Source: an uncultured Bacteriovoracaceae bacterium
GTDB lineage: Bacteria > Bdellovibrionota > UBA2428
DNA length: 64,000 bases
NCBI GenBank assembly: GCA_964477895.1
Contig: CAYZFQ010000001.1
Coordinates: 343,750-407,749 of the forward strand
Reading direction: 5' to 3'
Part shown: one piece after another, positions 21,863-63,970 of the stretch
Layout of the letters: every line of letters starts with the position of its first letter
Position numbering within the stretch: the first letter of the stretch is position 1
Translations under genes and position numbers: made by a program
The notes under the pieces: model-generated
What the model was told of the DNA's origin: nothing
Database searches by the model: none
What the model saw: only the letters and a program-made list of their open reading frames with translations

Positions 21863-22477
21863 CTAGGAAAAGCCCAGCGAAATAAGATTTTGTTCCGCCC
21901 GAAGCTGTGCAATTTTTTGCAGCATCTCGTGCGCACTCAAGCGGTCAATTCCCAATAAATCCAAACGATTTTTCATTACGTAATTTTTTATCCCGACATA
22001 GTCCTTCCCCCACTCTACAATGCGAGTAAAGGGCCGGGCCTGCCAAAAATGTTTAAGTGAAGAAGCTTTTCTCCAGGCTCTACCTTTCTGAGCATCAAGA
22101 ATAGTGCGGGCCAAAATCCCGCTAAGAGCGCGGATAAATCTGCGATAAGCGTAAATAGACTTGGGCTGAATCACAAGATGGACATGGTCGTGAGCCACTG
22201 CGATATCTCGAAGTTGCACTAGGGTTTTATTTCCCACATCCCTAGTGATTTTCTCAATCTGACTCGCCATTAAGATAAGACTCGTGACACCTCCGACGTT
22301 GGAGGTGGAAAGCTTCATCCACGCCGATTTCATCACCAAATGCATAGGCCGCTTCACGGCAATAGGACGAGCGGTGCGGGGATTGCCTTTGGCTTTCCCC
22401 GCACCTCCAAAAGCCTGCGACTTTTTCCAATCAAATCCGGGGAGAGGTATTTGAACGGATCGAGCTGCGAACTTCAT
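21863..22477 (-). CDS. IS200/IS605-family HUH tyrosine transposase-like protein (REP-associated tyrosine transposase, RAYT-like), 204 aa
   Basis: HuH motif HDHVHLVIQP, then WQARPFTRIVEW, then the catalytic-Tyr region KNYVMKN, in the order expected for a Y1 transposase. No IS ends or subterminal hairpins flank it. Confidence 0.55.
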   Translation of the reverse strand: MKFAARSVQIPLPGFDWKKSQAFGGAGKAKGNPRTARPIAVKRPMHLVMKSAWMKLSTSNVGGVTSLILMASQIEKITRDVGNKTLVQLRDIAVAHDHVHLVIQPKSIYAYRRFIRALSGILARTILDAQKGRAWRKASSLKHFWQARPFTRIVEWGKDYVGIKNYVMKNRLDLLGIDRLSAHEMLQKIAQLRAEQNLISLGFS

Positions 22478-22909: not shown

Positions 22910-23737
22910 TTACAAGAGCTTCAGAGCAAGTCCAGTGCTTTGGTTCGCTTGAGCCAAAGTTGCTACACCGGCGTTCTGAAGAATTGAAGTCTTGGCAAGC
23001 TCGGCCGACTCTACAGCCAAGTCAGCGTCCTTGATTCGGCTGTTCGCTGCCGACAAGTTCTCACGGTAAACTTCGATGTTGTTAATTGTAGAGCTCATTC
23101 GGCTTTGAACCGCACCGAAGTTAGAGCGCATTCCGGCTACCTTTGCGATGGCTTCTTCAACGCTATCCAAAGTGTCGCGAGCCGAAGACTTGGAATCTAC
23201 AGATATGCCCGATACCCCAAGTGACGACACTGTAGCGTTAGCTTTGCTGGCGTCGTAAGTGATGCGGTTATTTTCGCTACCACGAATACCTACTTGGAAG
23301 TCGAGTTCGCTAGCGCTTCCGTCCAGCAATTTGGTTCCGGAATATTCGGTAGTTTGGGCGATCCGTTCCATTTCTTGTTTGAGTTGTTGCACTTCGATGT
23401 TTACGAAGCCACGTTCTTTTTCGCCGATAGTATCGGAAGCGGCTTGAGTGGCCAATTCACGAAGTCGAACCAAGATGTTCGAAGTTTCGCTCAGTCCACC
23501 TTCTGCCACTTGCACGAAAGAAATACCGTCTTGGGCGTTACGTTGTGCTTGGCCGAAGGCTCTGATCGATCCGCGCATTTGTTCGGAGATCGCGAGGCCG
23601 GCCACGTCGTCCATCGACTTGTTGATGCGATAGCCAGAAGACAGACGCTCCATGGCTTTCTCTAATCCTGAACCGTTTTGGCGCAGGTTGCGTTGCGCGT
23701 TCACGCTCGCAATGTTTGTTTGAATTCTCAGACCCAT
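22910..23737 (-). CDS. fliC: flagellin, 275 aa
   Basis: Conserved flagellin N-terminus MGLRIQTNIASVNAQRNL and C-terminus LQNAGVATLAQANQSTGLALKLL. Confidence 0.9.
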   Translation of the reverse strand: MGLRIQTNIASVNAQRNLRQNGSGLEKAMERLSSGYRINKSMDDVAGLAISEQMRGSIRAFGQAQRNAQDGISFVQVAEGGLSETSNILVRLRELATQAASDTIGEKERGFVNIEVQQLKQEMERIAQTTEYSGTKLLDGSASELDFQVGIRGSENNRITYDASKANATVSSLGVSGISVDSKSSARDTLDSVEEAIAKVAGMRSNFGAVQSRMSSTINNIEVYRENLSAANSRIKDADLAVESAELAKTSILQNAGVATLAQANQSTGLALKLL

Positions 23738-24059: not shown

Positions 24060-24893
24060 TCAACCGATTAACTTCAGAGCCATTCCAGTGTTCTGGTTGG
24101 CTTGAGCTAATACCGAAGTCGAAGCTTGAGTCTTCACGGTGTCACGAGTCAGGCTCGCAGTCACATCCGAGAAGTCAGTATCACGAATTCGGCTCTTAGC
24201 AGCGCTGAAGTTCTCGATCGCAACTTCCGTGTTGTTGATCGTAGAACCTAAACGGTTTTGAAGGGCACCGAGGTTAGCACGATTGCTGTTCAACACGATC
24301 AGCGATTTATCGAGAGCATCCAAGTTGCTTTGAGCAGCTTGTTTGGTTCCGATATCAACTTTGCTCAGGCCAAGCGAATCCAAAGTCACGTTGGTTTCGC
24401 CAGGATTGTAGCTAATACGGTCCAAGAATTCGTCGTTCTTCACACCGATTTGAAACTCAAGCTTTTCGCCTTCTCCGCGAAGAAGGGGCGTGCCGTTATA
24501 CTCAGTAGACTGAGCAATTCGTTGCACTTCAAGTTTCAATTGTTGGGCTTCACGGTTGAGGTATTCGCGCTCTTTTAATCCGATAGTGTCGGAAGCGGCT
24601 TGTACGCTCAACTCACGAAGACGAACGATCATGTTAGAAATTTCGTTCATGCCACCTTCGGCCACTTGAACGAAAGAGATACCGTCTTGAGCGTTACGCG
24701 CTGATTGACGGAAGCTTCGGATGTTGGCATTCAAGTTCTCGCTGATCGCAAGACCTGCCGCATCGTCGGCTGATTTGTTGATTCGCGAACCGGAAGAGAG
24801 TTTCTCATATCCAGACGCTAGTTCGGCTTGGTTCGTACGCAAGTTTCTTTGCGCGTTGATGGCCGACATGTTTGTATTAATTCGCATTCCCAT
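24060..24893 (-). CDS. fliC: flagellin (second tandem copy), 278 aa from ATG 24893
   Basis: MGMRINTNMSAINAQRNL... and ...LAQANQNTGMALKLIG. AGGAG SD lies 8 nt upstream of ATG 24893. The track ORF extends further upstream without an SD. Confidence 0.9.
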   Translation of the reverse strand: MGMRINTNMSAINAQRNLRTNQAELASGYEKLSSGSRINKSADDAAGLAISENLNANIRSFRQSARNAQDGISFVQVAEGGMNEISNMIVRLRELSVQAASDTIGLKEREYLNREAQQLKLEVQRIAQSTEYNGTPLLRGEGEKLEFQIGVKNDEFLDRISYNPGETNVTLDSLGLSKVDIGTKQAAQSNLDALDKSLIVLNSNRANLGALQNRLGSTINNTEVAIENFSAAKSRIRDTDFSDVTASLTRDTVKTQASTSVLAQANQNTGMALKLIG

Positions 24894-25238
24894 TTTTAGT
24901 CTCCTGTATAAAGGTTCATAATTTTCCTTCCGTGTATAATTTCCAGGTGGAGCGTCCTGCCGGGACATCTCGCTTCATCCGAACCTGGGCTGCCATCAGT
25001 GGCATGTGGTTAAAGGTCAAAAAAAATTTTTAGGTCTATGACCGCCGCAAATGAATACTTCACTCGCAGAGTCCATCCTTAGCCCGAACAAAATGTTCTC
25101 AGTCTTCCGAACCCCCTTTCTCTCTGACCCGTAACCGCGTGCACCTTTAGGCTGTGAGCCTCGAGGAGCGTTTAGCGCCACGGAATCTTCAAGCTGAACC
25201 GAGAAAGTTTTTTGACGACTTTTCTCGATACATAGTGT

Positions 25239-36525: not shown

Positions 36526-37146
36526 ATGAAAGGCGCATCTTCACGTTCTAAAAGCGGCCAAACAGTTATTGAGTTTTCTTTTGTTATTATTCTTTTTGTT
36601 TTTATGATGATGGTCACCATCAATGCGGTGATTGCCTTTTGCACCCACCAGTACGTATCTTATGCCGTTTTTATGTCGGCTCGGGCCTACCAGGCTGCGG
36701 GGGGCACGGCCGACGAATCTCACACCCGAGCTGTGGCAGCTCTTCAATCCTACCTACCGGGCATTCCCGACGACAGCGGTGAAGGCCTTAGTATTCCTCT
36801 CACCATGCCGGGGATGGCCAAGCCCATTGCCACTATCGAGGGCGTGAACGTGCGTTCCCCCCAGCTTTATGACTATGGCCCCGCTGGTGAAATCGCAAAC
36901 GTAGAAATTTATGTGGATTTTTCTGTTCCTTTTGTGGACCTCCCCTTAGGACCGGAAATGCGGGCGCGGTTCGGAAAAATTCCTCTCCGGGCCAGTTCAT
37001 TTTTTGGCCGAGAAGCCTCACAGCAAGAATGCCAAGCTTTTTTTAAAAGATTCTTAGAGTCTTTTAAGATTTCCGGAGAAGTCGCGGGAGCTTACGAGAA
37101 CTTTTCCTCGGAGTTTTTTGGAAATATGGAGGACAACGGATGTTGA
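36526..37146 (+). CDS. tadE: TadE-like pseudopilin, 206 aa
   Basis: N-terminus SKSGQTVIEFSFVIILFVFMMM, as in the TadE/TadG N-terminal domain. Confidence 0.65.
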   Translation: MKGASSRSKSGQTVIEFSFVIILFVFMMMVTINAVIAFCTHQYVSYAVFMSARAYQAAGGTADESHTRAVAALQSYLPGIPDDSGEGLSIPLTMPGMAKPIATIEGVNVRSPQLYDYGPAGEIANVEIYVDFSVPFVDLPLGPEMRARFGKIPLRASSFFGREASQQECQAFFKRFLESFKISGEVAGAYENFSSEFFGNMEDNGC

Positions 37147-37604
37147 TCACTTCAAAAAAAGGCCAGGCCATTACAGAGTTTCTTCCGGCCTGCATTATTT
37201 TATTTATGGTGATGACGGCCGCCCTTTCGTATTACCGGGTGATGCGCGCGGCTTCCATTCGCCAAGAAGTGGTGCGCAATTTGACCTTTGCTAAAATTCG
37301 CAATTCTGGACCTCTCACCACCACACCCGACCAACTCGCCGGTGGTTCAGGGTCGGGACTTCCGCGACTTAACATGGAGCGCATCAGCGTTTCCGGTGGG
37401 CGCAATGCCATTGCCGAGACTCCGGTGATGAATGCCGGAAATCACGACTTTATTCGCTTTGATTCCAACTGTTTCACCGTTTATCCGGCGGATCCCAAGG
37501 TCACGATAAAACTGGGTCCCCTCATGATGGCCGGTGACCTAGGGGATTTAGATTTTAGCACCTACGCCGTGATGTACCGGGGCCCGGGGGGCGGCTGTCC
37601 TTAG
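37140..37604 (+). CDS. TadE/TadF-like pseudopilin, 154 aa
   Basis: KKGQAITEFLPACIILFMVM N-terminal motif. Overlaps the previous gene by 7 nt. Confidence 0.6.
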   Translation: MLITSKKGQAITEFLPACIILFMVMTAALSYYRVMRAASIRQEVVRNLTFAKIRNSGPLTTTPDQLAGGSGSGLPRLNMERISVSGGRNAIAETPVMNAGNHDFIRFDSNCFTVYPADPKVTIKLGPLMMAGDLGDLDFSTYAVMYRGPGGGCP

Positions 37605-37662
37605 GCCAATTTAAGAATTTTCCGAAAAGTTCCGACAAGAACTTGAAAGAAATGGGGGATTT

Positions 37663-38580
37663 GTGAACCAGTCGAGAGCCTTCTTGATGAGCATCGTGTT
37701 TGCCGGCCTCGCCATGCTTTTGGTTTACTTTTACGTTTCCGAGCGTGAGAGCAGCATTTCCGCCGAATACGGCACGCCCATTGCGGTGATCGTTGCCGCC
37801 AAAGACATCAACGAGTTCGAAGAAATTCAGCAAAGCATGTTGGCCGTAAAAGTCGTGCCCATGAAATTTGCTCAGCCAGGCGCTTACAACATGATCAAAT
37901 CGGGTAAGACCGAAAAACTTTCGCAGTTTACGGTAGAAACTTTTGTGGGCGCCGTGGCTTCGGCTCCCATTCGTAAGGGTGAGCAGGTCCTCTTAAATAA
38001 AGTTTTACTCAAGGGCGTGGAAACAGGCTTGGCCTCACAAGTCGCCATTTCGCGCCGAGCTCTTTCGATTCCCGTGAACGACACCACGGGAGTGACTAAA
38101 CTTTTAAAACCCGGCGACCGCGTGGATCTTATCGCGAGCGTTCAGTACAAGGGTCAGGGCGGTCAGGAATCTGAAGTTAAAACCCTCATGCAAAACGTTC
38201 ACGTTTTGGCCGTGGGTGAAGTGATCCAAAATAAAATTCCTACAGCCTTTGAAGTGGATCCTCTTTCAGGAACCCGAAAGGCTTTGAACCTTCGGGGGAG
38301 CCGCCAGTTCGGAACCATCACCGTAGAGGTCACCCCCGGCGAAGCTCAAAATATTATATGGGCTCTTCAAAACGGTTCTGAAATTTATACCAGCCTTCGA
38401 AATCCCGTAGATCGTGTGGTGGCCTCCGTCCCCACATCAACTGTGGACGAAGTCTTGGGACCTAACTCCAAAAAGGCCGAGCGGGAGCGAGTCAAACCCG
38501 TTATCAAGCCCGTGGAAAAAGCTCCGCCTCCGCCACCGCCTTCCAGCTTCAGCAACTCGGGTGGGGGATTATTTAAATAA
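37663..38580 (+). CDS. cpaB: Flp pilus assembly protein CpaB/RcpC, 305 aa
   Basis: N-terminal TM anchor then SAF/beta-rich domains. Gene order conserved with the Tad locus. C-terminal PPPPPPSS tract. Confidence 0.75.
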   Translation: MNQSRAFLMSIVFAGLAMLLVYFYVSERESSISAEYGTPIAVIVAAKDINEFEEIQQSMLAVKVVPMKFAQPGAYNMIKSGKTEKLSQFTVETFVGAVASAPIRKGEQVLLNKVLLKGVETGLASQVAISRRALSIPVNDTTGVTKLLKPGDRVDLIASVQYKGQGGQESEVKTLMQNVHVLAVGEVIQNKIPTAFEVDPLSGTRKALNLRGSRQFGTITVEVTPGEAQNIIWALQNGSEIYTSLRNPVDRVVASVPTSTVDEVLGPNSKKAERERVKPVIKPVEKAPPPPPPSSFSNSGGGLFK

Positions 38581-38581
38581 T

Positions 38582-40414
38582 ATGAGAAAGTCTTTCTTAA
38601 AGTTTTCTCTTTTGGTACTCGGAGTTTTTATAGGCTCCCTTCGAGCTCAGGACGCCGAGCCGGCTCCAGATTCCTCAACTAACCGAAATCCAGCCATGGT
38701 TCCTCCGGCGGGTTCACCGGCCGAAGCTGAGCCCGCACCCACTCCCTTGGCTGAAGAAACCCCAGCTCCCACTCCGCTTAAGGAAACCCTTTCATTAATA
38801 GACGGGATTAAAAGCGATGTTCCTGGATCCATTGCAGATACCAACGTTAACCGAATCATGGAATCTAAGGTTAAGTCCCAAACTTTAAATCCTGACAAAG
38901 GCTTTGAAGACCTCTTCTTAACTAAGAACTCCAGTGCGGTATTAGACATTCATAAACTGCCCGTGAAAAATCCCGGGGAAGATTTGGAATGGCTCCAAAC
39001 CAATATTGGCATTGTGGCCAAATCAGAAAAAGACCCCTCAGGTGGTTTTCGTGTTTATGCGGGAACCCAAGTGGGTTCGACTCAAATTCTTGTTTACGAG
39101 CGCAAGGCCGCTGTTGCCGGTAAACGAGATCGTGGAAATCTCCTTAAAGTCTACCGAGTAACGGTAACCAGCGAAGACCTTCTTTCACTGCTCCAAGAAA
39201 TTAAGGCCCTAATCGGAAATGTGGAAGGTCTAGATATTCGAGTGGTGGGCACCCAAGTCGTGATTGATGGAGCGGTCCTTGTCCCCAAAGACATGCGCCG
39301 AGTGGTGGCCGTGGTGAGCAAATATCAAACAGAGAAAAAGCCAGTGATTAACTTAGCTGAGATCTCTCCTCTAACTACCAAGCTTCTGGCTGAAAAAATG
39401 GAAGAAGAAATTGCGGGTGGAAAAGACCGACCCCGCGAAATTAAAGTTAAAGTCGTGAACGGAAGGTTTTTCCTAGAAGGTGCGGTAGACAAACAGGCTG
39501 AGCGTGAAACCGCCGTTCGAATTTGCCAAGCCTACATTTCAGAGCGCTACACCCTTGAAAACTCAGCCTCGGTGCAATCGCCTCGAATTCCAGGCCTTAA
39601 TGAATGTGTGCTGATGGTAAAGATTCGCCAAGGCCAGCCGGCGGATCCCGATCCCATCATTAGTGTACGCGTGGATTTTGTTACTTTAGATCGAAACTAC
39701 CTTAAGAGCTTTAACTTTAGGTGGGCGCCTGGAATGAACTTGAAGGGCGAAGTGGGTTATTCCAGTGACGCCGGAAAATTTCTCACTTCCTTTGTGGGCC
39801 TCTTGGATAATCTATTTCCCAAGTTAGAAACAGCGGCTTCTCATGGACATGCGCGTATTCTTAAAACGGCAACTCTTCTTGTGCGAGACGGCGAGAACGC
39901 GGCCAAAGGTGGGGGAGCGCCGCCCGAGGCTCAAATATCTGAAGTGTTAAAACTTCCTGTAATGATTCAGGGCACCGCTAATTCGCCAGGATCTTTCACC
40001 ACGGTTCCGGTTGAAACCTACATTAAAATTTTGGCCAAATCGGTGCCAGGGTCCGACAAAGTGAATATGGATATCTCAGCCAAGCAGTCTGAGATTAAAA
40101 GCCAAAACAAAGAGCAAGGTCCCACCGTCTTAGACAACATGATCCAAACCAGTATCGTGGTGGCCAACGGTGAAAGTGCGGCCTTAGGTGGCTTGATTGC
40201 CGAACGTCGCAACGTAGATATCACCCGGGACCCGGCCTCCGATGGTAACGCGGCCACTTCAGCCCAAAATAAATTTGAACTCTTCGACATCGGTCGAGGT
40301 CATAGCTTCAGCGACTCCAAAGTGCAGTTTATTGTCTTTGCCACACCCGAGAAACTGCGCACACCCTCTGAAGGAACCGAAAAACTTAAGCGTAAGTTTA
40401 GGTTGAGGAAGTAA
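38582..40414 (+). CDS. cpaC: Flp pilus secretin CpaC/RcpA, about 610 aa from ATG 38582
   Basis: Signal peptide MRKSFLKFSLLVLGVFIGSLRAQ. C-terminal secretin signature VVANGESAALGGLI. The track ORF begins inside cpaB. Confidence 0.8.
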   Translation: MRKSFLKFSLLVLGVFIGSLRAQDAEPAPDSSTNRNPAMVPPAGSPAEAEPAPTPLAEETPAPTPLKETLSLIDGIKSDVPGSIADTNVNRIMESKVKSQTLNPDKGFEDLFLTKNSSAVLDIHKLPVKNPGEDLEWLQTNIGIVAKSEKDPSGGFRVYAGTQVGSTQILVYERKAAVAGKRDRGNLLKVYRVTVTSEDLLSLLQEIKALIGNVEGLDIRVVGTQVVIDGAVLVPKDMRRVVAVVSKYQTEKKPVINLAEISPLTTKLLAEKMEEEIAGGKDRPREIKVKVVNGRFFLEGAVDKQAERETAVRICQAYISERYTLENSASVQSPRIPGLNECVLMVKIRQGQPADPDPIISVRVDFVTLDRNYLKSFNFRWAPGMNLKGEVGYSSDAGKFLTSFVGLLDNLFPKLETAASHGHARILKTATLLVRDGENAAKGGGAPPEAQISEVLKLPVMIQGTANSPGSFTTVPVETYIKILAKSVPGSDKVNMDISAKQSEIKSQNKEQGPTVLDNMIQTSIVVANGESAALGGLIAERRNVDITRDPASDGNAATSAQNKFELFDIGRGHSFSDSKVQFIVFATPEKLRTPSEGTEKLKRKFRLRK

Positions 40415-40417
40415 ATC

Positions 40418-42607
40418 ATGGCTGATCCAAACCAAAGTCCGGGCGGTCACATCATCGCCATCGTAGGTGGTAAGGGTGGAGTTGGAAAATCAGTTTTTGC
40501 CGCCAACTTTGCCCTCTCCATGGCCATCGATGCCAAGAATGGCCCGGCTCTAATTGATATGGATCCTCAGGGTACCGGCGACTTAAATTTGATCTTAGGC
40601 ATCAAGCAGGTCAAAGGTTTCGGTGAGCAAGTGCTCGAGGGAAAGATTCGAGATTCTGCGGCCCTAAAGCAATTTCTGACCCCAGCTCCTAACACACAGA
40701 GCCCACTTTACACCTTGCAGATGATGAGCAACCCTGAGCGCCTTCTCGTCCAAGATGATGAGCGTGTGGATTTAGCCTTAAAATCTTTGCGCAAAGCCTT
40801 TCCTGTAACCATCATCGACTGTGGCACTTCACTTGAAGGGCCGATTCTTAAAGTTTTGGATTTGGCTTCGATGATCATGGTAGTGACCAACCCCGAGATT
40901 CTTGTTCTCAACCAGACGAAGAAGATCTTAGATAAAATCCAAACCCTGCTTTATCCGCCCGACATGACAAAAATAGTTTTAAACAAGGTTTCACCTCAAA
41001 GTCCCTACACGGCGCAATTTTTAGAGCAAAGTCTTAAGCGCCAGGTGATATCTGTGGTCCCTGAAGATGTGGCTGCCGCCAGTATGGGTTTGGCCAAAGG
41101 ATCTCCTTTTGTGGTGTCTTCACCTCAGTCCGGCGCCTCCAAAGCTCTTTTCCAGCTCAGTCGCCTGCTCATTGAGCGCAAAGTCTTAGATCAGCTCCAA
41201 ACTCTAAGTCGCCCCCCTCGTCCCAAAGCGGCCTTGGAAGTTATTGAGGGCGGAGCCTCATCGGTGGCTGCAGGCTCCAGCGGTAACAATGAGGTTAAGC
41301 ACGGACGTTTTGGAAAGGATCCCAGAGATCCGCGCAGCATTTTTAAACTCCGAGTCCATGCTCAGCTTGTTGAAAAAATGGATTTAAAAAAAGAACAGCT
41401 CGATCGGGCCTTAGACAACGAGAAAAAAGTGGAGCTTAAGAACAAAGCTCTTAAAATCGTGAGTGAGATCATGAATAACGAAGACCACCCTTGGAAGAGC
41501 CGCGAAGACAGCGCTCAACTCATCAAGGAAGTCTTAGATGAGGCCCTAGCCCTGGGGCCCTTAGAAGATTTGATAGCCGATGATTCCGTTACCGAAATCA
41601 TGGTGAACCGAGCTGACCTAATTTATATTGAGCGCGCGGGTCGCAATACTAAGTCTAAAGTAACTTTTTCAAGCAATACCCAGTTGATGGCGGTCATTGA
41701 GCGGATCGTCAATCCTATCGGCCGGCGCATTGATGAAAAAACCCCCTACGTAGACGCCCGTTTAGCAGACGGAAGCCGGGTCCATGCCATCATTCCTCCC
41801 CTTTCATTAGATGGTCCCATGGTCACCATTCGTAAATTTCCTAAAAAGCGATTGGGCCCTGAAGATTTAATTAAATACGGTTCGGTCACACCCGAAATGT
41901 CAGATTTTTTACGAGCCTGCATTGAAGCCCGCCTCAATGTGATTGTGAGTGGGGGTACGGGTTCTGGTAAAACCACTCTTTTAAATATTTTATCAAGTTT
42001 TATCCCAGCAACTGAACGTATCCTTACCGTGGAAGACGCGGCCGAGTTGCGGCTTAACCAAGAGCACGTGGGCCGTTTAGAAACACGTCCTCCCAATATC
42101 GAAGGCGCCGGTGCTGTTACTATTCGAGATCTGGTACGCCAAACTCTGCGTATGAAACCTGACCGCATCATCATTGGTGAAGTGCGAGCCGGTGAGGCGC
42201 TCGACATGCTTCAGGCCATGAATACGGGGCACGATGGTTCAATGGCCACGGTCCATGCCAATACTCCGCGAGATGCCATCGCTCGTTTGGAAACTCTCGT
42301 GATGATGGCGGGCATGGACTTACCCGCCAAGGCCATTCGCGACCAAATTTCTAGCGCTGTGCATTTGGTGGTTCAACAAAGCCGTTTATCCGATGGGTCT
42401 CGTAAAGTGACTTACGTGACGGAGATCACCGGGATGCAGGGAGATGTGATTTCTTCCCAAGATATATTTCAGTTTAAGCAACAAGGTTTGGATTCCAATC
42501 GCAAGGTAATCGGTAAGCACGTGGCGACCGGTTTTATTCCTAAGTTTATCGAGAGGATTGAGGCTTTGGGAATCAAAATTCCCCGAGGACTCTTTAAAGC
42601 GGCATGA
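40418..42607 (+). CDS. fused TadZ/CpaE-like ParA-type ATPase (N-terminal about 260 aa) and TadA/CpaF secretion ATPase (C-terminal), 729 aa
   Basis: Deviant Walker A IVGGKGGVGKS near the N-terminus (ParA/MinD). Later VSGGTGSGKTT, DRIIIGEVR and GHDGSMATVHAN (VirB11/TadA). A single uninterrupted ORF. Confidence 0.8.
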   Translation: MADPNQSPGGHIIAIVGGKGGVGKSVFAANFALSMAIDAKNGPALIDMDPQGTGDLNLILGIKQVKGFGEQVLEGKIRDSAALKQFLTPAPNTQSPLYTLQMMSNPERLLVQDDERVDLALKSLRKAFPVTIIDCGTSLEGPILKVLDLASMIMVVTNPEILVLNQTKKILDKIQTLLYPPDMTKIVLNKVSPQSPYTAQFLEQSLKRQVISVVPEDVAAASMGLAKGSPFVVSSPQSGASKALFQLSRLLIERKVLDQLQTLSRPPRPKAALEVIEGGASSVAAGSSGNNEVKHGRFGKDPRDPRSIFKLRVHAQLVEKMDLKKEQLDRALDNEKKVELKNKALKIVSEIMNNEDHPWKSREDSAQLIKEVLDEALALGPLEDLIADDSVTEIMVNRADLIYIERAGRNTKSKVTFSSNTQLMAVIERIVNPIGRRIDEKTPYVDARLADGSRVHAIIPPLSLDGPMVTIRKFPKKRLGPEDLIKYGSVTPEMSDFLRACIEARLNVIVSGGTGSGKTTLLNILSSFIPATERILTVEDAAELRLNQEHVGRLETRPPNIEGAGAVTIRDLVRQTLRMKPDRIIIGEVRAGEALDMLQAMNTGHDGSMATVHANTPRDAIARLETLVMMAGMDLPAKAIRDQISSAVHLVVQQSRLSDGSRKVTYVTEITGMQGDVISSQDIFQFKQQGLDSNRKVIGKHVATGFIPKFIERIEALGIKIPRGLFKAA

Positions 42608-43473
42608 ACGTTTGGCTTATCTCCATACTTTCAGCGCTGCTTTTCTTTTTTTCGCTGTATCTTTCTTTTGATTATTGGTTCGAAAAACTCTGGCTGGGTA
42701 ACATGGTCAAAACCACAGAAGAAGCCGTGCGAGTTTTTGAAGATGTCTTTCAGCCCAAAACTATTGAACAAATGCGCAACCTGCAACTATCTATTGCCGG
42801 TGGCTCTTCGGCTCTAATTTTATTCCTGTGTTGGCCGGAAGTGGCCATAGGTATCCCCGCAGCTTTAATTACTTTTTGGTACACCTGGAAGCTGCCCCTT
42901 GTTTATATCAAGTATTGGGTGCGCCCCCGTCGAATTACCCAGTTTTCCCACCAAATGGTGGACGCTCTGACTCTTATGGCTAACGGTCTTAAGTCCGGGC
43001 TCAACATCTCCCAGGCTTTGCAAATTGTGGTGGACGAGATGCCGGCCCCCATTCGGGAAGAGTTTGGTTTAGTGCTCAACGAGAATAAAATCGGGGCCAC
43101 CTTAGAGAAGGCTTTTGAGAACATGGGAGCTCGGATGCCGTCAGAAGACGTGAGCATGTTTGTGACCTCGGTAAACATTTTGCGCGAAACAGGCGGTAAC
43201 ATCGCCGAAACTTTTGAAACCATTACCAAAACCATCCGCGAACGCATCAAATTACAGAATAAAATATCAGCCATGACGGCCCAAGGGATGACTTCAGCCT
43301 TCATTGTAGGAGCCATGCCCTGGGGCATTGGCATCATGCTCTATGGGATCGACCCTGACACGATGCGGCCAGTCTTCACTCGGGCCGCGGGCATTGTGAT
43401 CTTAATGATTATTACGGCACTCGAGGTGCTAGGTTTCTACGTGATCGTCAAAATTGTGAGGATCCGCGTATGA
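42604..43473 (+). CDS. tadB: TadB/TadC-type (T2SS-F domain) inner-membrane platform protein, 289 aa
   Basis: Three TM segments with a T2SS-F fold. Only one copy present. 4-nt overlap with the ATPase gene. Confidence 0.75.
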   Translation: MNVWLISILSALLFFFSLYLSFDYWFEKLWLGNMVKTTEEAVRVFEDVFQPKTIEQMRNLQLSIAGGSSALILFLCWPEVAIGIPAALITFWYTWKLPLVYIKYWVRPRRITQFSHQMVDALTLMANGLKSGLNISQALQIVVDEMPAPIREEFGLVLNENKIGATLEKAFENMGARMPSEDVSMFVTSVNILRETGGNIAETFETITKTIRERIKLQNKISAMTAQGMTSAFIVGAMPWGIGIMLYGIDPDTMRPVFTRAAGIVILMIITALEVLGFYVIVKIVRIRV

Positions 43474-43553
43474 TACAGAGGGCCCATGAAAAACTATTGA
43501 CGCCTTACCGGATGAGAAACCGGGTTAGACTATTAAAAAGTTCAGGAGGGATT

Positions 43554-45149
43554 ATGGCTCGTACTCGAAATCTTTGGCTTCTTGGAGTTCTTTTATTCAG
43601 TGCTTCTATCTCGCAGGCGGGAGTGAACGTGAACAACGGGAATTTCTACATTGCGTATACGGATTTTTTCCTTCCCACTCCGGGACTGAATGTGGAAATC
43701 ACCCGCACCTACAATAGCCGATCAAACTATGCCAAAGGCTACTTTGGGATGGGTTGGTCCTCTGAAATGGAAGGTTACCTAGTTTTCGATAAGAGCACCT
43801 TGGTTTACTTCGAGGGAGGCGGAGGTAACGCCGTTCGCTTCGAGCCTGTGAAAGGTAAAAAAGGGGAGTGGTCTAACTCCATCTACGGAAATCAAAATAT
43901 TCGGCAAATCAAAAATGGCTATGTGCTGCGCACTCCCGTGGCTAAGGACCTCCAGTTTGATATGAAGGGCCGGCTGGCCAAGATTTCCGACCGCAATCGC
44001 AATTACATTGAGTTTGTCTACAAGGGTGTTCGCCCGCAGATGATCAAAGACAACCACAATAACCAAATCAAAATTAGCTGGAAAGACTTCGGAAAGTTCC
44101 CCCGAATTGTGGCTCTCGAGCGTGGTGAAATGAAAGCCCGATATGAGTATTCACCAACCGGTGATCTTGTTAAGGCCTCCGGCCTCGATGGCAACCCTTT
44201 CGAGTACGCCTGGGATGACGAACACAATCTCACCAAGATTTCTTATAAAGACGGCACCTACCGAGAAATCGCTTACAACAAAGTTCGCGACTGGGTTGTG
44301 AAGTACCGGGAGCGCGACAAATGGATTACCGACTACGAATATATCTCGGATACTTTAGATCCAGAGAATAAATTTGGAACCGTTGTGAGCCGCTACAAAG
44401 AGGGCTCAAAAGATAAAGAATCATCGCGCTACTGGTACGAGTTCCGCCGGCGCGCGGATGGCAGTCGTTACAATTACAAAGCCGTAACGCTAGCCAATAA
44501 CTTAGCGACAGAGTCCATCTTCACGGAGTGTTGCAATACTCCACTTGTCATTTCGCAGTGGAACAGCAATGACCCCAAACGAAGTGACGCACCGGATGCC
44601 TGGATTACAGCCAAGGGTCAAAAGCGCTCCACTTTTTTTGAATATTATGCCGATGGATTGTTAAAGAAGAAAACGGCTCCGGATGGAGCTGTAACTTTCT
44701 TAACCTACGATCCTAAAAATGGGAAAGTGGCCTCGGTAAGCCGTGCCGGTCGTAAAGTGGAATACAACTACGATGTGCGCGGAAACTTAGACTGGGCCTA
44801 CGATAGTGGCGACAATAAGCGCATTGACCTGACCTACGACCTTAAGGGTCGAATCACGGTAGTTAAAGAAGCGATCAATGGTGCCAAAGCCAGCTCTCGA
44901 CTCGTGTACTTCCGCTACAATGCTGAAGGAAAACCGATTGAGGTGAAAGAAAAAACTTCAGACGGCAACCAAGGATCCATTCAAATTGCCTACGATCGTA
45001 ACGGCGAAGTCTTAGCCATCACCAACAGTAAGGGTCGGGCCGTAGCTTCTGAGAACGAAATCGCAACGGCTCAGCGAGTGGCCATGACTTTCCAGAACTT
45101 AATGGAAATCGTGCAGCCCGCAGGGGTTAGCCTGAGTCCGGAAGGGTGA
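43554..45149 (+). CDS. secreted YD/RHS-repeat protein, about 531 aa from ATG 43554
   Basis: Perfect SD CAGGAGGG plus signal peptide. Repeated Y-x-YD/YEY motifs (YEYSPTGDLV, FEYAWDDEHNL, VEYNYDVRGNL, LTYDLKGRI). Plausible counterpart of Bdellovibrio hit-locus partner protein. Confidence 0.7.
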   Translation: MARTRNLWLLGVLLFSASISQAGVNVNNGNFYIAYTDFFLPTPGLNVEITRTYNSRSNYAKGYFGMGWSSEMEGYLVFDKSTLVYFEGGGGNAVRFEPVKGKKGEWSNSIYGNQNIRQIKNGYVLRTPVAKDLQFDMKGRLAKISDRNRNYIEFVYKGVRPQMIKDNHNNQIKISWKDFGKFPRIVALERGEMKARYEYSPTGDLVKASGLDGNPFEYAWDDEHNLTKISYKDGTYREIAYNKVRDWVVKYRERDKWITDYEYISDTLDPENKFGTVVSRYKEGSKDKESSRYWYEFRRRADGSRYNYKAVTLANNLATESIFTECCNTPLVISQWNSNDPKRSDAPDAWITAKGQKRSTFFEYYADGLLKKKTAPDGAVTFLTYDPKNGKVASVSRAGRKVEYNYDVRGNLDWAYDSGDNKRIDLTYDLKGRITVVKEAINGAKASSRLVYFRYNAEGKPIEVKEKTSDGNQGSIQIAYDRNGEVLAITNSKGRAVASENEIATAQRVAMTFQNLMEIVQPAGVSLSPEG

Positions 45150-58571: not shown

Positions 58572-59669
58572 ATGTGGTTGAAACTCCTAATGACTTCTTT
58601 TTGTTTTTCACCACTAGTGTTGCACGCCCAGACCGACATTCATAAGTTTCGTTTACAAGAGATCAGCTTTCAGTACACATCCACTTTGCCGGGGGTCGGA
58701 CGCTGTTTACAGTGGCTGCCGCTTGACGAAGACAACGCTCGACCCACCTTGGAATACGACGCTCAGGGGAATCCGTTTCTTCGAGCGAATGTGCGCGCTC
58801 GAGTGAGTGGAGACTGTCGGATAAAAATTGAAAATCAAAGCGCCATGAAGATTCTGGACCGAGAAGGCGAAATCGCCTCCTTTGAGGTTAGAGTATTGCC
58901 ACCGGCAACTCGCGTGGTTGTGAGTGGGAAAGATTTTCGTGACGAGCTTTTGCTAGAAGCCCCAATAAAAAAAATTGAAGAAACAAGTTTCCTAACAGTT
59001 TTTCGCAGATCCCGAGTGGCTTTTGAGACACGCTATGCGCGACTTAGCACCACAAATTCCGTTGCTCAAAAGTCGGCCACTATTTTTCCTGTGTTCGGTG
59101 GAGTATTCGTTTTTCCTCTGTGGGGGAATTTTCACTCTGGCTTTTCCATTTTTAATAATCTCGGTAATCTCAGCTCAAATAAACTCGTAGATGTTCAATA
59201 TAGTGAATTCGCCTTTGATGTGCGTTATTTGTTTCAACCTATTTCGAGAAATCCAGACTCTTTACTTTTGACTCCGGTGTTGGACTATAGGGGGCGAAAT
59301 ATTTATCAGACAAGCTTTACCCGCCCCTTCATTATTGGCTCAGTGGCACTGCCTGGATTTGGTTTTGATCTCCAAAGCTTTCCGTTTTTGAGTGCGAACG
59401 GAACTTCATCCAAGTTGAGGAACTTGGCATTAGACTTTTCGACCCGACTTTATTTAGGGGGAAGGGTGGGCGGCAGACCCTATCGTGCCTACCTTTACGA
59501 CATTGCGGTAGGCTATAAAGTAAATAAGAAATGGGCGCTCAGTTTGGGTTATGCGAGTCTCAACCAACAAGCGACTTTTTCAGGGGTAACAGCGACAAAA
59601 GTGACGGAGAAAATGAGCAGCGTCTTTGCGCGAATCAGCCTCATTCCCTACAGCCGAGGTCCCAAATGA
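58572..59669 (+). CDS. hypothetical secreted beta-rich protein, 365 aa
   Basis: Signal peptide MWLKLLMTSFCFSPLVLHAQT. ATGA coupling to the next gene. Confidence 0.5.
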   Translation: MWLKLLMTSFCFSPLVLHAQTDIHKFRLQEISFQYTSTLPGVGRCLQWLPLDEDNARPTLEYDAQGNPFLRANVRARVSGDCRIKIENQSAMKILDREGEIASFEVRVLPPATRVVVSGKDFRDELLLEAPIKKIEETSFLTVFRRSRVAFETRYARLSTTNSVAQKSATIFPVFGGVFVFPLWGNFHSGFSIFNNLGNLSSNKLVDVQYSEFAFDVRYLFQPISRNPDSLLLTPVLDYRGRNIYQTSFTRPFIIGSVALPGFGFDLQSFPFLSANGTSSKLRNLALDFSTRLYLGGRVGGRPYRAYLYDIAVGYKVNKKWALSLGYASLNQQATFSGVTATKVTEKMSSVFARISLIPYSRGPK

Positions 59670-60871
59670 TTCTTTTGAAACCTAGGTGTTATTTCCTTCT
59701 TTTAGGCCTAATTTTTGGGGCGCCCACATATGCTCAAGATCGGATAGCTTCTCGAGCCCCAAGGGGAACGTCGACGACTTCTTCCTATGTGCCAGCCCCA
59801 GATACTCCTCAAAGGTTTCGTTCGCAAAAAACCTGGCAAGGCAGTCGGTGGTATGTGTTGGGGCGCCTCTTTGATGCGAATAAAATTCAATGGATCGATG
59901 GAGGGATTTCTGAAATAAAATGGGATTCCCGGACCTGCTCCCCCGCGCGACTGGCGACACTACACCAAAGTAATTTTCAGATTCGTCGTGGCGAAGGCGC
60001 GGGGCTCAATCTGGAAATTCTCAAAAGCCGCGATTGGGTAGCTATAGAGGTGAACCCGGCTTATCTTAAAGAGGAATTTATAGTGAGCGTGGGATCTGCC
60101 GGGCGGGAGAATGCGTGCACGGGCATTGTGGCCATGACCTACATTTGGGATGCGGCTCAGGGAACTACTCAACCCCTCTTTTTCATATCGAAAACAGGCA
60201 ATCGATATTTTGGTAGTGAATTTTTGATCGAGAGCTCCGAATTTGAAGAACGAGCCGATATCCAATTGGATCTCCTGCTGGGTATCTCTCACAATCGCTT
60301 TCCAAATGCGGCGGCGGGAACAAAGTCTTCACTCATTTTCGCTCCCAACGCCATCGCTCGAGGTGAATGGCAGGTGCCTACCTTGCCTCAACTGGGGCTC
60401 ACCCTTGGACTCAGTCAAACGGTAGCCAGCATTGGGGGGGTAGCGAATCAAAACGCTCTCTATTCGGATTGGGCCCTGGGTTTGTTTTACCAAAAGATGT
60501 TGCGTGTGAGAGATGGTTTGCAGCTCCGAGCTTCACTGCGTTTTGCCCAACATTTATCAGACGACAATCAAACTTTGAGCACGATCGCGACTGCTAATAA
60601 AAATGCTCAGTATTTTATTTGGGGCTTTCTCGCCCAGATCTACCACTCTGAGCGTTGGTTAACTGGAGCGGAGTTAAGCTATGGCCTTCCCAATTCAATG
60701 GCGGGCCGAGGTGTGAAGCAGAGTTACATGAGTGCCCTGGCCCGCTTGGGTGTGAGAATGACCACCTCAATGTTTTTGATTTCGGAAGTAGATTATCAAT
60801 CCTTTATGGCGGCCACTTACAACCCCGAGACACAGCTTGCCGTCAATTTGGGCATGCGACTTGAGCTTTGA
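59666..60871 (+). CDS. hypothetical outer-membrane-like beta-rich protein, about 401 aa
   Basis: Signal peptide MILLKPRCYFLLLGLIFGAPTYAQD. Alternating hydrophobic pattern at the C-terminus (LAVNLGMRLEL). Confidence 0.5.
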   Translation: MILLKPRCYFLLLGLIFGAPTYAQDRIASRAPRGTSTTSSYVPAPDTPQRFRSQKTWQGSRWYVLGRLFDANKIQWIDGGISEIKWDSRTCSPARLATLHQSNFQIRRGEGAGLNLEILKSRDWVAIEVNPAYLKEEFIVSVGSAGRENACTGIVAMTYIWDAAQGTTQPLFFISKTGNRYFGSEFLIESSEFEERADIQLDLLLGISHNRFPNAAAGTKSSLIFAPNAIARGEWQVPTLPQLGLTLGLSQTVASIGGVANQNALYSDWALGLFYQKMLRVRDGLQLRASLRFAQHLSDDNQTLSTIATANKNAQYFIWGFLAQIYHSERWLTGAELSYGLPNSMAGRGVKQSYMSALARLGVRMTTSMFLISEVDYQSFMAATYNPETQLAVNLGMRLEL

Positions 60872-60875
60872 TTCC

Positions 60876-62615
60876 CTAAAAACTTTGATCGAGGCTCGAA
60901 AAGCCCCTTTGTAACATGCCAAGGACATCTGGGTTTAGGAGGGCGAGATTTTTGAGCTGGGCATGCGAGGCCTCTTTTAGAGATTGTAGACTTAAATCTA
61001 TCAAAGAAAGTTCAAAGATCTCGTAAGTGAGAAGCCAGTCGAGAGGAAATTGCTGCTCAAGTTTTTTTACGATCTTGAAGAGTTCGGAGGCCCGCTCAGC
61101 GACGTGACCGCTTTGGCGAATGTCGCGAACCTGGGAATAGAGCTCGTTTAGTTCGAGATTAGCAGGGGTAAGATTTGTTTTTGCAGAAAGATTTTGTGAT
61201 ACCCCAAGATAGTCGGGGGATATCGGCGCAAAGCGACTGCGGTCAGCGGCATCACCAAATACTGAAATAACTCTTTCCCCGCATGCTAGGTCAAAGGACC
61301 CCCAACTCGGATCAAAGAGCGTTTCCCCACCTAGCGTAACGCGACAATTTTTCAGTTGCACAAATAGGTTTTTCCCGGCGCGTTTGAGGTGCTTTACGTA
61401 AGATCCCTTAACTTCGATGCCGGAGGCAAAAATAAAGTGGGCTTTGCGAAGTTCGGCTTCAGTTAAAGCCGTGAGAGGAGCCGAGAAGTTTTTCAAAGGT
61501 CCCAGTGGAGTGCTGAAACCCATAGGGTGATGTGGGGGGCCTTGGTCAGGTAGTTCATGATCTTCAAAAGAGAGTTGGCAGGGGCCGGAATATTTTAAAA
61601 AGCAGGGGAGGGATTCATGAGTGCGAAAAGATTCCAACATTCCCGAAATTTGCAGCCCACTGTCGAACACCGTTGTGCTGAGGGCTCGTGCAGATCGGGC
61701 GCGTTCAATGGCGATAAGGCCACCCATACGGAACGACATTTTTTGAGAAAGTTCTTCCAAGGCATTCTCGAGAACTTGAAAATCTTGAGCTACAAAAAGT
61801 TGCGGTTGGGGTTTGGTGATGTCAAAATCTTGGCCAATAACCTCCAAGCTAAAGGGAATTTTAGGCACCTGGGGTCCTAAGCAGTGAAAGGACTCTTGTA
61901 CTGAGGATAAAAGACCGGCTCCGTAAATTTTGGGATCTTGCAGATCTCCCACAAGCCCATATTCAAAAGTCCACCATCCCATCCGGGATACCTGGGTCGC
62001 CTCGCTCACAAAAGTTATGGAGTCAATGGCAGCTTTGAGAGCCCTTTCGGCCTGGGCAATCATAGTCGGAGTCGATAACGGATTTTCCTTGATATCAGAG
62101 AGTCTGCGAATGGCATTATATACGGTGAGATCTTCGGAGGAATAAATGGCTTTGCGAGCCAATTCACCATAGCTTCGAAGGTAACGGGCATATTCTGGAT
62201 CAGCCAGAATGGGGGCGTGTCCTGCGGCTTCGTGAACAATATCTGGGGCCGGTGTATAAGCTAAGTGTTCCAGGGTCCGCATCTCGCAGGCAATGGGCAG
62301 CACACCCAAAGCAAAAAATTCCATAAAGGCCCCGGGCGGTATAAATCCACTCACGGGTACGGCGCGCCAACCGAAGCGGCGCAATTTTTCATCAATTTCG
62401 GAAATCAAAGGAATTTGTTCGGTATGAATCCCAGTTTCTTCGAGTCCACGCAGATATTTCTCATGCGCATGGTCTTTAAAAAAATGTTGGGAAAGTTTTA
62501 GAATAAAACGCCATCCCGCATGATCCATGGGGGTGTAGAGTTCAGGGCGTTGAGTCGCAATGTGAATACGTAGATGTGGAGGAATTTCTGAAAAAGCTCC
62601 GCCCGTTTGCTCCAT
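60876..62615 (-). CDS. phhA: biopterin-dependent aromatic amino acid hydroxylase (phenylalanine-4-hydroxylase-like) with about 280-aa C-terminal extension, 579 aa
   Basis: Iron-binding PDIVHEAAGHAPILADP (His-x4-His). WWTFEYGL, KIYGAGLLSS and IPLISEIDEKLRRFGW closely match bacterial PAH motifs. The C-terminal half has no match that I recognise. Confidence 0.7.
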   Translation of the reverse strand: MEQTGGAFSEIPPHLRIHIATQRPELYTPMDHAGWRFILKLSQHFFKDHAHEKYLRGLEETGIHTEQIPLISEIDEKLRRFGWRAVPVSGFIPPGAFMEFFALGVLPIACEMRTLEHLAYTPAPDIVHEAAGHAPILADPEYARYLRSYGELARKAIYSSEDLTVYNAIRRLSDIKENPLSTPTMIAQAERALKAAIDSITFVSEATQVSRMGWWTFEYGLVGDLQDPKIYGAGLLSSVQESFHCLGPQVPKIPFSLEVIGQDFDITKPQPQLFVAQDFQVLENALEELSQKMSFRMGGLIAIERARSARALSTTVFDSGLQISGMLESFRTHESLPCFLKYSGPCQLSFEDHELPDQGPPHHPMGFSTPLGPLKNFSAPLTALTEAELRKAHFIFASGIEVKGSYVKHLKRAGKNLFVQLKNCRVTLGGETLFDPSWGSFDLACGERVISVFGDAADRSRFAPISPDYLGVSQNLSAKTNLTPANLELNELYSQVRDIRQSGHVAERASELFKIVKKLEQQFPLDWLLTYEIFELSLIDLSLQSLKEASHAQLKNLALLNPDVLGMLQRGFSSLDQSF

Positions 62616-62629
62616 ACCACGAGCCTAGC

Positions 62630-63970
62630 TTAAGCAAAGAGAGCAAGCCAATGGCCGAAGTGACGCTTTGCGCGCGTCACAAGCTTTTGTTTCTTTTCTT
62701 TGTCTCGTTCGTCAATGCCGCTGAGCGGAACGAGCCCCCAGTTGATATTCATGGGTTGAAAATTCTTAATTTTGCCGTTTACAATAGCGTGAGCCAGGGC
62801 GCCCAGAGCTGTTGTGGCGGGAGGCAGGGGCACCTCTTCCATTCCCTTTAAACGCCGTCCCAACATTTTTCCCACTAAGGCCCCAATGGCCGTACTTTCC
62901 AAATACCCCTCCACACCAGTGATTTGGCCTGCAAACATTAAATGAGGAAAGCCTTTCAAGCGAAAGTTGCTATCTAGAAGTGCGGGGGAGGAAATATAGG
63001 TGTTGCGATGCAAACTGCCAAAACGATAAAATTCAGCTTGGGCGAGTCCAGGAATTAACGAAAAAACTTTTTTCTGCTCAGAGTATTTAAGTTTGGTTTG
63101 GAAACCCACCATATTCCATGAGCGGCCTTCTGCATCTTCCTTTCGAAGCTGCACCACTGCGTAGGGACGGGAATTGCTACGAGGATCGGACAAGCCGACC
63201 GGTTTCATTGGGCCAAAAGCTAGGGTGCGCCGACCGCGCTCCAATAAGGCCTCGATGGGTTGGCAGCCCTGAAAGTAAATGGCTTTCTCGAAGTCTTGGA
63301 ATTCCACTTTTTCGGCTTTTGCCAGGGCATCGATAAAGGCTTCATATTCCCCCTCGTTGAGGGGGCAATTGAGATAGTCGCCATCGTCACTCGAACCCTC
63401 AGCACCTTTGTCGTGACGATTTTGCATAAAGGCGATGCTGCGATCGATACTTTCACCCGAAATGATAGGTGCAATGGCATCATAAAAATAAAGTTGTTCC
63501 CCGATCACCTTTTTAAGGCTTTGGGCAAGGTCTTTAGCGGTGAGGGGACCTGTCGCTATCACCACAGGTTTCAAGAGGCCTCCTTCGCTGGGAATTAACA
63601 CTTCTTCCAAATGAACAACGGGCTCTCGAATTAAGGTGATGAAGGAGTTTTTTTCGAGTGCCTGAGTAATTTGCTGACTGAATTTATCGCGGTCAACGGC
63701 CAGCGCCTGACCTGCCGGAACCCGATTATCCATGGCTGATTGGAGGACTAAGGAGTGAAGAGCCTCAAGCTCAAATTTGAGTTGGCCAGGTGCGGATTCA
63801 GCATCCAAGGATTTGAGAGAATTGCTACACACAAGTTCGGCGCAAAGGGAACCTGTGTGAGCCTCAGTGCTACGCTGAGGTCGTTGTTCAATAAGGGCTA
63901 CGCGTAAACCCATTTGTGCAAGCTGCCACGCACATTCGGAGCCGGCCAAGCCTGCTCCAACTACGATCAC
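62630..63970 (-). CDS. trmFO: methylenetetrahydrofolate--tRNA-(uracil54-C5)-methyltransferase TrmFO (Gid), 446 aa
   Basis: N-terminal FAD fold MIVVGAGLAGSECAWQLA. Length and overall pattern typical of TrmFO. Confidence 0.85.
   Translation of the reverse strand: MIVVGAGLAGSECAWQLAQMGLRVALIEQRPQRSTEAHTGSLCAELVCSNSLKSLDAESAPGQLKFELEALHSLVLQSAMDNRVPAGQALAVDRDKFSQQITQALEKNSFITLIREPVVHLEEVLIPSEGGLLKPVVIATGPLTAKDLAQSLKKVIGEQLYFYDAIAPIISGESIDRSIAFMQNRHDKGAEGSSDDGDYLNCPLNEGEYEAFIDALAKAEKVEFQDFEKAIYFQGCQPIEALLERGRRTLAFGPMKPVGLSDPRSNSRPYAVVQLRKEDAEGRSWNMVGFQTKLKYSEQKKVFSLIPGLAQAEFYRFGSLHRNTYISSPALLDSNFRLKGFPHLMFAGQITGVEGYLESTAIGALVGKMLGRRLKGMEEVPLPPATTALGALAHAIVNGKIKNFQPMNINWGLVPLSGIDERDKEKKQKLVTRAKRHFGHWLALFA

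Follow-up and report, generated by a model that had tools for sequence, protein, structure and literature searches.

What is a bacterial phenylalanine hydroxylase (PAH) doing with almost twice the usual number of residues? The question is raised by a gene in a 64-kb stretch of DNA from an uncultured Bacteriovoracaceae bacterium (GenBank assembly GCA_964477895.1, contig CAYZFQ010000001.1, positions 343,750 to 407,749). This whole stretch is called the window here, and positions are counted within it. The gene encodes a protein of 579 amino acids, and the initial annotation described it as a PAH-type enzyme nearly twice the length of bacterial PhhA, carrying a C-terminal extension that could not be matched to anything and lacking an adjacent phhB gene for pterin-4a-carbinolamine dehydratase (PCD). 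Several questions follow from this description. Is the protein peculiar to this organism? Is it the product of one gene or of two? What does the extension, residues 293-579 (287 amino acids), contribute? Does it make up for the missing dehydratase? The gene belongs to an established family of long bacterial hydroxylases that has been curated and has a solved structure (NF010657/PRK14056; prototype PDB 7VGM), and we are fairly confident that its product would be a Phe hydroxylase of this long form, with the extension serving as a built-in structural or regulatory scaffold.

Membership of the family is seen over almost the whole length of the protein. Residues 9-575 align with positions 5-574 of the NCBIfam equivalog model NF010657 (PRK14056, 'aromatic amino acid hydroxylase', 580 positions), with a score of 620.8 bits against a cutoff of 346. 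The sole Pfam match of the 579-residue protein is that of its N-terminal part to PF00351 (Biopterin_H; 97.7 bits against a cutoff of 22.7, E = 8.9e-28). The cutoffs of the short-form models TIGR01267 and NF008877 are not reached (146.9 against 264.75 and 182.9 against 247), nor are those of the eukaryote-type models TIGR01268, TIGR01269 and TIGR01270, which give 72-83 bits against cutoffs of about 650-705 (for TIGR01268, the eukaryote-type PAH model, 83 bits against 704.8). In the PDB, the 592-residue chain of 7VGM, released on 2022-04-27 under the title 'Crystal structure of Phenylalanine hydroxylase from Bacillus cereus ATCC 14579', aligns with residues 9-539 (E = 1.2e-128). An AlphaFold2 model of the window protein built with 28 homologs (pLDDT 88.8, pTM 0.85) matches 7VGM by Foldseek with TM scores of 0.86/0.88 and a root-mean-square deviation of 3.4 Å over 576 columns at 39% identity, and the other PDB matches of the full model cover the catalytic domain alone, with a query-normalised TM score of about 0.36.

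Within the family, the window protein is a new, moderately divergent member. In a word-indexed protein search, the best 120 of 8000 matches are all 549-661 amino acids long and 50-58% identical to it; those that bear a name are called 'aromatic amino acid hydroxylase' and come from Bdellovibrionota, Oligoflexia or Bdellovibrio. The nearest database relative among these best 120 is thus at most 58% identical, and the solved structure 39%. Two minor features set the protein apart: an aspartate, D455 (61251-61253), at a position that is occupied by Gly in 95% of sequences and lies in the GxAADR motif closing the second of two β-barrels in the extension, and a two-residue insertion in a flexible linker, G471-V472 (61200-61205), which is found in 0 of 74 relatives. 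When a profile made from the extension only was searched against 1.84 billion representatives, 1150 proteins were found at E ≤ 1e-3 and 354 at E ≤ 1e-30. From 150 confirmed relatives, 80 genome loci were retained on contigs from one genome per species; they belong to Bdellovibrionota, to Bacillota (Alkalihalobacterium, Aneurinibacillus, Brevibacillus, Laceyella, Neobacillus and others) and to Bacteroidota (Tenacibaculum, Polaribacter, Sphingobacterium and others). The novelty implied by the initial annotation is lost with these results: the long form has already been curated in NF010657/PRK14056, which models the extension too, has a crystal structure in 7VGM and is widespread in three phyla.

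Could the length be an artefact of two adjacent genes? In the window, the protein is encoded by one uninterrupted open reading frame (ORF) with an ATG start and 579 codons before the stop. At each of the 80 loci, whichever of the three phyla it belongs to, the extension comes directly after the hydroxylase domain; 79 of them encode both parts in one frame and one ORF, and a two-gene artefact was ruled out on the strength of the single ORF there and in the window. The remaining locus (L035, 9114-10909, in the Bdellovibrionota metagenome-assembled genome (MAG) contig JAZKJI010000010.1) has a frameshift that separates the catalytic domain from the extension of the same gene, and this is either an assembly error or a sign of a pseudogene; HPPD and homogentisate 1,2-dioxygenase (HGD) genes lie about 4-6 kb from this split gene. 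Conversely, about ten representatives of 285-300 amino acids begin exactly at the conserved Met293, as a stand-alone extension would. One of them, P0135, the only one on which the question of stand-alone extensions was checked, comes from a 1.3-kb contig with 'IFGAGLLSS...QPQLFV' encoded upstream in frame, and it was rejected as a fragment or a mis-called start. The extension is an integral module that defines the family, neither a separate enzyme nor a separate gene.

The N-terminal domain would be a non-haem Fe(II), tetrahydropterin-dependent monooxygenase that most likely converts L-phenylalanine to L-tyrosine. Its fold corresponds to those of the PAHs of Chromobacterium violaceum, Colwellia and Legionella (Foldseek probability 1.00, target-normalised TM scores of 0.73-0.81, about 265-300 columns), which, like human PAH, overlap the region of residues 27-292 only; by sequence, short PAHs match the window protein at E of about 1e-28. 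The hallmark motifs noted at the outset, His-x4-His and KIYGAGLLSS, are both present, and the PAH-type assignment is upheld by PF00351, NF010657 and 7VGM alike. Conservation of residues was counted over 75 family members from the three phyla. R113, Y120, T121, D125, H128, E129, H133, W214, E218, S237 and E241 are invariant in 75/75, and we take them to be the equivalents, in the same order, of R270, Y277, T278, D282, H285, E286, H290, W326, E330, S349 and E353 of human PAH. On this alignment, iron would presumably be bound by the triad of H128, H133 and E218, pterin would be contacted by E129, and the amino-acid substrate would be held by R113, T121 and S237, the last of these among the contacts to the substrate backbone. 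A tryptophan at the position of human W326 is typical of PAH and a phenylalanine there is typical of tryptophan hydroxylase (TPH); W214 appears PAH-like rather than TPH-like. The catalytic domain also contains an insert. Matches to short PAHs break into residues 24-155 and 208-284, leaving about 50 residues unmatched, in which the AlphaFold2 model places helices at 160-177 and 183-198. This insert is found throughout the long family, and short PAHs lack it.

The genes around the relatives bear on the substrate. Beside the long PAH, HPPD is encoded in 14 of the 80 loci, HGD in 12 and fumarylacetoacetase (FAH) in 10; this linkage is mostly found in Bacillota, with five other loci in addition, including that of the split gene. 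Such a context supports the view that the long PAH is a catabolic Phe hydroxylase, and, taken with the conserved residues, it makes phenylalanine the most likely substrate. A different substrate (Trp, Tyr, or Phe by meta-hydroxylation), used for a non-catabolic purpose with a specificity shaped by the extension, is decidedly unlikely. The PAH-typical W214 is invariant, Phe/Tyr catabolic clusters surround relatives in Bacillota, in one Bacteroidales MAG and in some Bdellovibrionota, and the depositors of 7VGM named their protein phenylalanine hydroxylase; what speaks for another substrate is that the gene is unlinked to homogentisate-pathway genes in the window and in most Bdellovibrionota loci, that the NCBI family name, 'aromatic amino acid hydroxylase', is generic, and that bacterial PAHs are promiscuous (review PMC9048412).

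How would the enzyme recycle its pterin? The observation that phhB is not adjacent holds for the entire 64 kb, in which no PCD gene was found by tblastn (with PhhB and human PCD sequences as queries), by a scan for the HHP motif or by a hidden Markov model built from the adjacent PCDs of relatives. Twenty ORFs of small or medium size in the window include no pterin-synthesis gene, and none of the Bdellovibrionota and Bacteroidota loci examined has a PCD gene within 10 kb. The lack of PCD in these places, together with the invariant His and Asp of the extension, could suggest that the extension itself supplies the missing PCD or another pterin-recycling activity. However, PCD is adjacent or fused in 8 of 21 Bacillota loci. 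In seven of these a canonical PCD gene stands directly beside the long PAH and coexists with the extension, and in Effusibacillus consociatus a 703-amino-acid triple fusion (locus L067, 9119-11230; NZ_JBHSHC010000097.1) joins the hydroxylase, the extension and, downstream of both, a C-terminal canonical PCD domain with a DHHP motif. Given the seven adjacent genes and the Effusibacillus fusion, the long enzymes continue to rely on canonical PCD and the extension is no replacement for it, and the substitute hypothesis was rejected on this evidence. The extension resembles PCD in neither sequence nor fold; moreover, PCD genes are often unlinked and the search covered 64 kb of this genome. A dehydratase in the extension is thus hardly credible, and the absence of PCD here is most simply explained by an unlinked gene. 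With PCD beside or joined to the hydroxylase in these eight Bacillota loci, the lack of phhB characterises the present locus and those examined in Bdellovibrionota and Bacteroidota, not the family. In the Effusibacillus locus, an aminotransferase-like gene, identified by eye, lies immediately upstream of the fusion.

Apart from the hydroxylase, no cluster of shared neighbours occurs in more than 14 of the 80 loci. A generic short-chain dehydrogenase (SDR) is encoded within about 400 bp of the hydroxylase gene in 11 loci; it recurs in Bdellovibrionota, on either side and in either orientation, and scores below every NCBIfam cutoff. Dihydropteridine and sepiapterin reductases are SDRs, and by analogy the recurrent SDR could be a candidate pterin reductase. 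A protein of about 220 amino acids with no Pfam or NCBIfam match stands beside the long PAH in 14 Bdellovibrionota loci, and a small membrane protein resembling DUF423/PRK10873 recurs in 10 loci. The window has no homolog of the SDR, of the 220-amino-acid protein or of the DUF423-like protein.

The extension is not a common regulatory domain, and in this respect too the initial annotation was right to find nothing recognisable. A Pfam scan of the extension gave no match for the window protein and no significant match for 23 homologous extensions, and a PDB profile search and Foldseek returned nothing significant except 7VGM, which is the sole PDB sequence match of residues 293-579 and is matched by the extension-only model at E = 8e-24. 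Structure prediction resolves the extension into two small β-barrels in tandem (about residues 311-456, with the strands of the second at 393-454) and a five-helix bundle (helices 484-502, 506-522, 527-537, 541-560 and 562-578), an arrangement that agrees with 7VGM. By hhalign the two barrels match each other (probability 93%, E = 3e-7, 42 columns), and on this evidence they are a homologous pair. They also match dozens of Sm, LSm and Hfq chains weakly (Foldseek E of 0.03-0.1, probability 0.6-0.96, 56-82 columns), and Pfam Hfq is matched weakly, at E = 0.094, in 2 of 24 extension members. The linker between the barrels and the bundle ends in a K(T/S)NLT motif (residues 479-483) that is kept in close relatives and missing from B. 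cereus.

Conservation of the extension, seen from the alignment, appears nearly as high as that of the catalytic core and points to strong constraint: the mean column conservation is about 0.55 for the two barrels against 0.67-0.69 for the core. Within the extension, 29 residues are close to universal: D458 in the linker, G298, G299, T314, G320, Q322, G325, G344, L348, H363, G366 and P370 in the region of the first barrel, G404, W438, G439, D442, G446 and S451 in the second, and Y493, R500, P524, D526, W527, L528, L529, E532, E535, L554 and G571 in the helical bundle. A methods paper using 7VGM describes a hydrogen-bond network of R32, D62, R494, E530 and E533 in that structure (PMC10776388). 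These residues map to R36, E66, R497, E532 and E535 of the window protein, and all are invariant or nearly so with the exception of E66. Because the network residues of 7VGM are conserved here, the helical bundle is expected to dock on the N-terminal helix of the catalytic domain: it would fold back onto this helix through the charged residues R36, R497, E532 and E535.

What, then, would the extension do? Because it is always fused to the hydroxylase, is tightly packed, co-occurs with the insert of the catalytic domain and is strongly constrained, we read it as an integral structural or regulatory module. It would most likely stabilise or tune the catalytic domain as a scaffold, and it may sense a small ligand. 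Sensing could be its whole purpose: the extension would then be an allosteric sensor of a small ligand, for example phenylalanine, and a functional analogue of the eukaryotic ACT domain with an unrelated fold. The family is without any ACT domain, the window protein having no Pfam match to one, and polar residues at the loops and strand ends of the barrels (T314, Q322, H363, D442, S451 and D458) are invariant; a conservation almost equal to that of the catalytic core and the tight packing on the catalytic domain (pTM 0.85) would also fit. The same invariant residues could as well be structural or lie at an interface, however, and the extension matches no recognised ligand-binding family, so that a dedicated sensor is possible but doubtful. 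In its boldest version, the tandem Sm-like barrels and the bundle would be a new class of ligand-sensing module, an ACT counterpart that evolved independently, with an effector site at H363, D442, S451 and D458, and this we offer as speculation of a similarly tentative kind.

The Sm likeness and the position of the bundle bring in another explanation, namely that the extension is mainly an oligomerisation domain comparable to the C-terminal tetramerisation helix of eukaryotic hydroxylases. It too is C-terminal and ends in a helical bundle, and Sm-like barrels often form rings, as do the Sm, LSm and Hfq proteins matched by Foldseek. Yet the model of the full-length monomer is compact (pTM 0.85) and the invariant charges of the bundle serve an intramolecular network in 7VGM; the single chain in the PDB copy of 7VGM points in the same direction, though as weak evidence, since crystal symmetry could make oligomers. 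We regard oligomerisation as an unlikely main role, and a structural or regulatory scaffold remains the preferred reading. Several points weigh against this preferred reading. The window lacks not only PCD but also HPPD, HGD and FAH, so that the argument from a catabolic context depends on relatives, chiefly those in Bacillota; the likeness of the barrels to the Sm fold is weak, at the Foldseek E values given above; and the searchable literature yielded no biochemical data on long-form enzymes, no published function for the extension and no primary paper on 7VGM or study of the long form, only methodological papers with 7VGM as a test case, so that both the substrate and the role of the extension are deduced.

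As a discovery, the gene carries little weight: NF010657 would name the protein automatically, and the PDB already contains the structure of a homologue. Its residual value lies in a module of about 290 residues, present in more than 1000 sequence clusters and three phyla, for which Pfam has no model. Work on this module could explain how Phe hydroxylation is regulated or stabilised in bacteria when no ACT domain is present, and it would add a new domain family to Pfam. What the extension does is the remaining point of interest in a gene that is otherwise an ordinary member of its family. The features of the gene and its upstream neighbour are collected in Table 1.

Table 1. Features of the long-form hydroxylase gene and of its same-strand neighbour, with positions in the window
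Feature	Position	Strand	Evidence
Complete coding sequence, long-form aromatic amino acid (phenylalanine) hydroxylase	60876..62615	-	Full-length match to NF010657; alignment and superposition with 7VGM
Catalytic Biopterin_H domain, residues 27-292	61740..62537	-	PF00351; Foldseek; AlphaFold2 pLDDT mostly 85-95
Putative iron-binding His-x4-His, H128-E129-A-A-G-H133	62217..62234	-	Invariant in 75/75; aligned to HELLGH of PAHs
E218 in WWTFEYGL, putative third iron ligand of the 2-His-1-carboxylate triad	61962..61964	-	Invariant in 75/75; aligned to YWYTVEFGL of cPAH
KIYGAGLLSS, residues 229-238, including S237	61902..61931	-	Family alignment
Helical insertion of two long helices, residues ~156-207	61995..62150	-	Split matches to short PAHs; AlphaFold2 model
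Start of extension: linker helix 299-309 and first small β-barrel (strands 312-370)	61500..61739	-	AlphaFold2 pLDDT 94-97; invariants in three phyla
Second small β-barrel, residues 393-456	61248..61439	-	AlphaFold2 model; homologous to the first barrel
Low-confidence linker, residues 457-483, with invariant D458	61167..61247	-	pLDDT 59-73
C-terminal five-helix bundle, residues 484-579	60879..61166	-	AlphaFold2 model
TrmFO, upstream neighbour	62630..63970	-	NF003739, 585.8 bits

The stop codon of TrmFO and the ATG of the hydroxylase gene are 14 nucleotides apart, and a simple scan of this gap for terminator-like sites on the minus strand found none. The two genes are probably co-transcribed, as judged from this arrangement, and no functional connection between them is evident. 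On the other side, two adjacent proteins are encoded on the plus strand at 58572-59669 and 59531-60871, neither of which matches Pfam or NCBIfam. Their ORFs share an overlap of 139 nucleotides, and the true start of the second protein is probably a later Met, ahead of a stretch resembling a signal peptide. This second ORF is convergent with the hydroxylase gene, 4 bp separating the two stop codons. Elsewhere in the window, a protein with an IS200-like Y1 transposase domain (21863-22477, minus strand; PF01797, E = 6.6e-9) is encoded in the interval that separates a response-regulator gene from two flagellin genes in tandem (22910-23737 and 24060-24968), and a Tad/Flp-type pilus assembly cluster (TadE-like, RcpC/CpaB and T2SSF-family proteins with large neighbouring ORFs) occupies 36526-45149 on the plus strand and is unrelated to the hydroxylase.

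Among known systems, the B. cereus enzyme (7VGM; NF010657) is the closest in architecture: at 39% identity it shares the catalytic domain with the helical insert, the tandem β-barrels and the helical bundle, and the residues of its interdomain Arg/Glu network are kept in the window protein. It differs in belonging to another phylum, the best-named relatives of the window protein being Bdellovibrionota, and in the linker at 457-483, since the window protein and its close relatives have K(T/S)NLT and C445, both of which B. cereus lacks. The genomic setting also differs, as many Bacillota loci have a catabolic cluster or PCD nearby and the window locus has neither. The short PhhA enzymes of C. 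violaceum, Pseudomonas, Colwellia and Legionella share the catalytic fold of the window protein, as well as its residues for iron, pterin and substrate. At 260-300 amino acids, however, these monomeric enzymes are about half as long as the window protein, which bears out the length comparison of the initial annotation, and they have neither the helical insert of about 50 residues nor the 287-residue extension. In the classical arrangement phhB comes after phhA (Zhao et al., 1994, as cited in PMC1173090). The window hydroxylase departs from the phhAB(C) operon in having no PCD gene at its side, its neighbours being TrmFO and two unannotated proteins. The eukaryotic hydroxylases of phenylalanine, tyrosine and tryptophan are tetrameric and carry an ACT regulatory domain at the N-terminus and a tetramerisation helix at the C-terminus. 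Their catalytic core superposes on that of the window protein, and they resemble it in carrying additional non-catalytic domains, which are regulatory in eukaryotes. These extra domains are nevertheless unrelated in position and in fold: that of the window protein is C-terminal, comprises about 287 amino acids and is made of β-barrels and a helical bundle.

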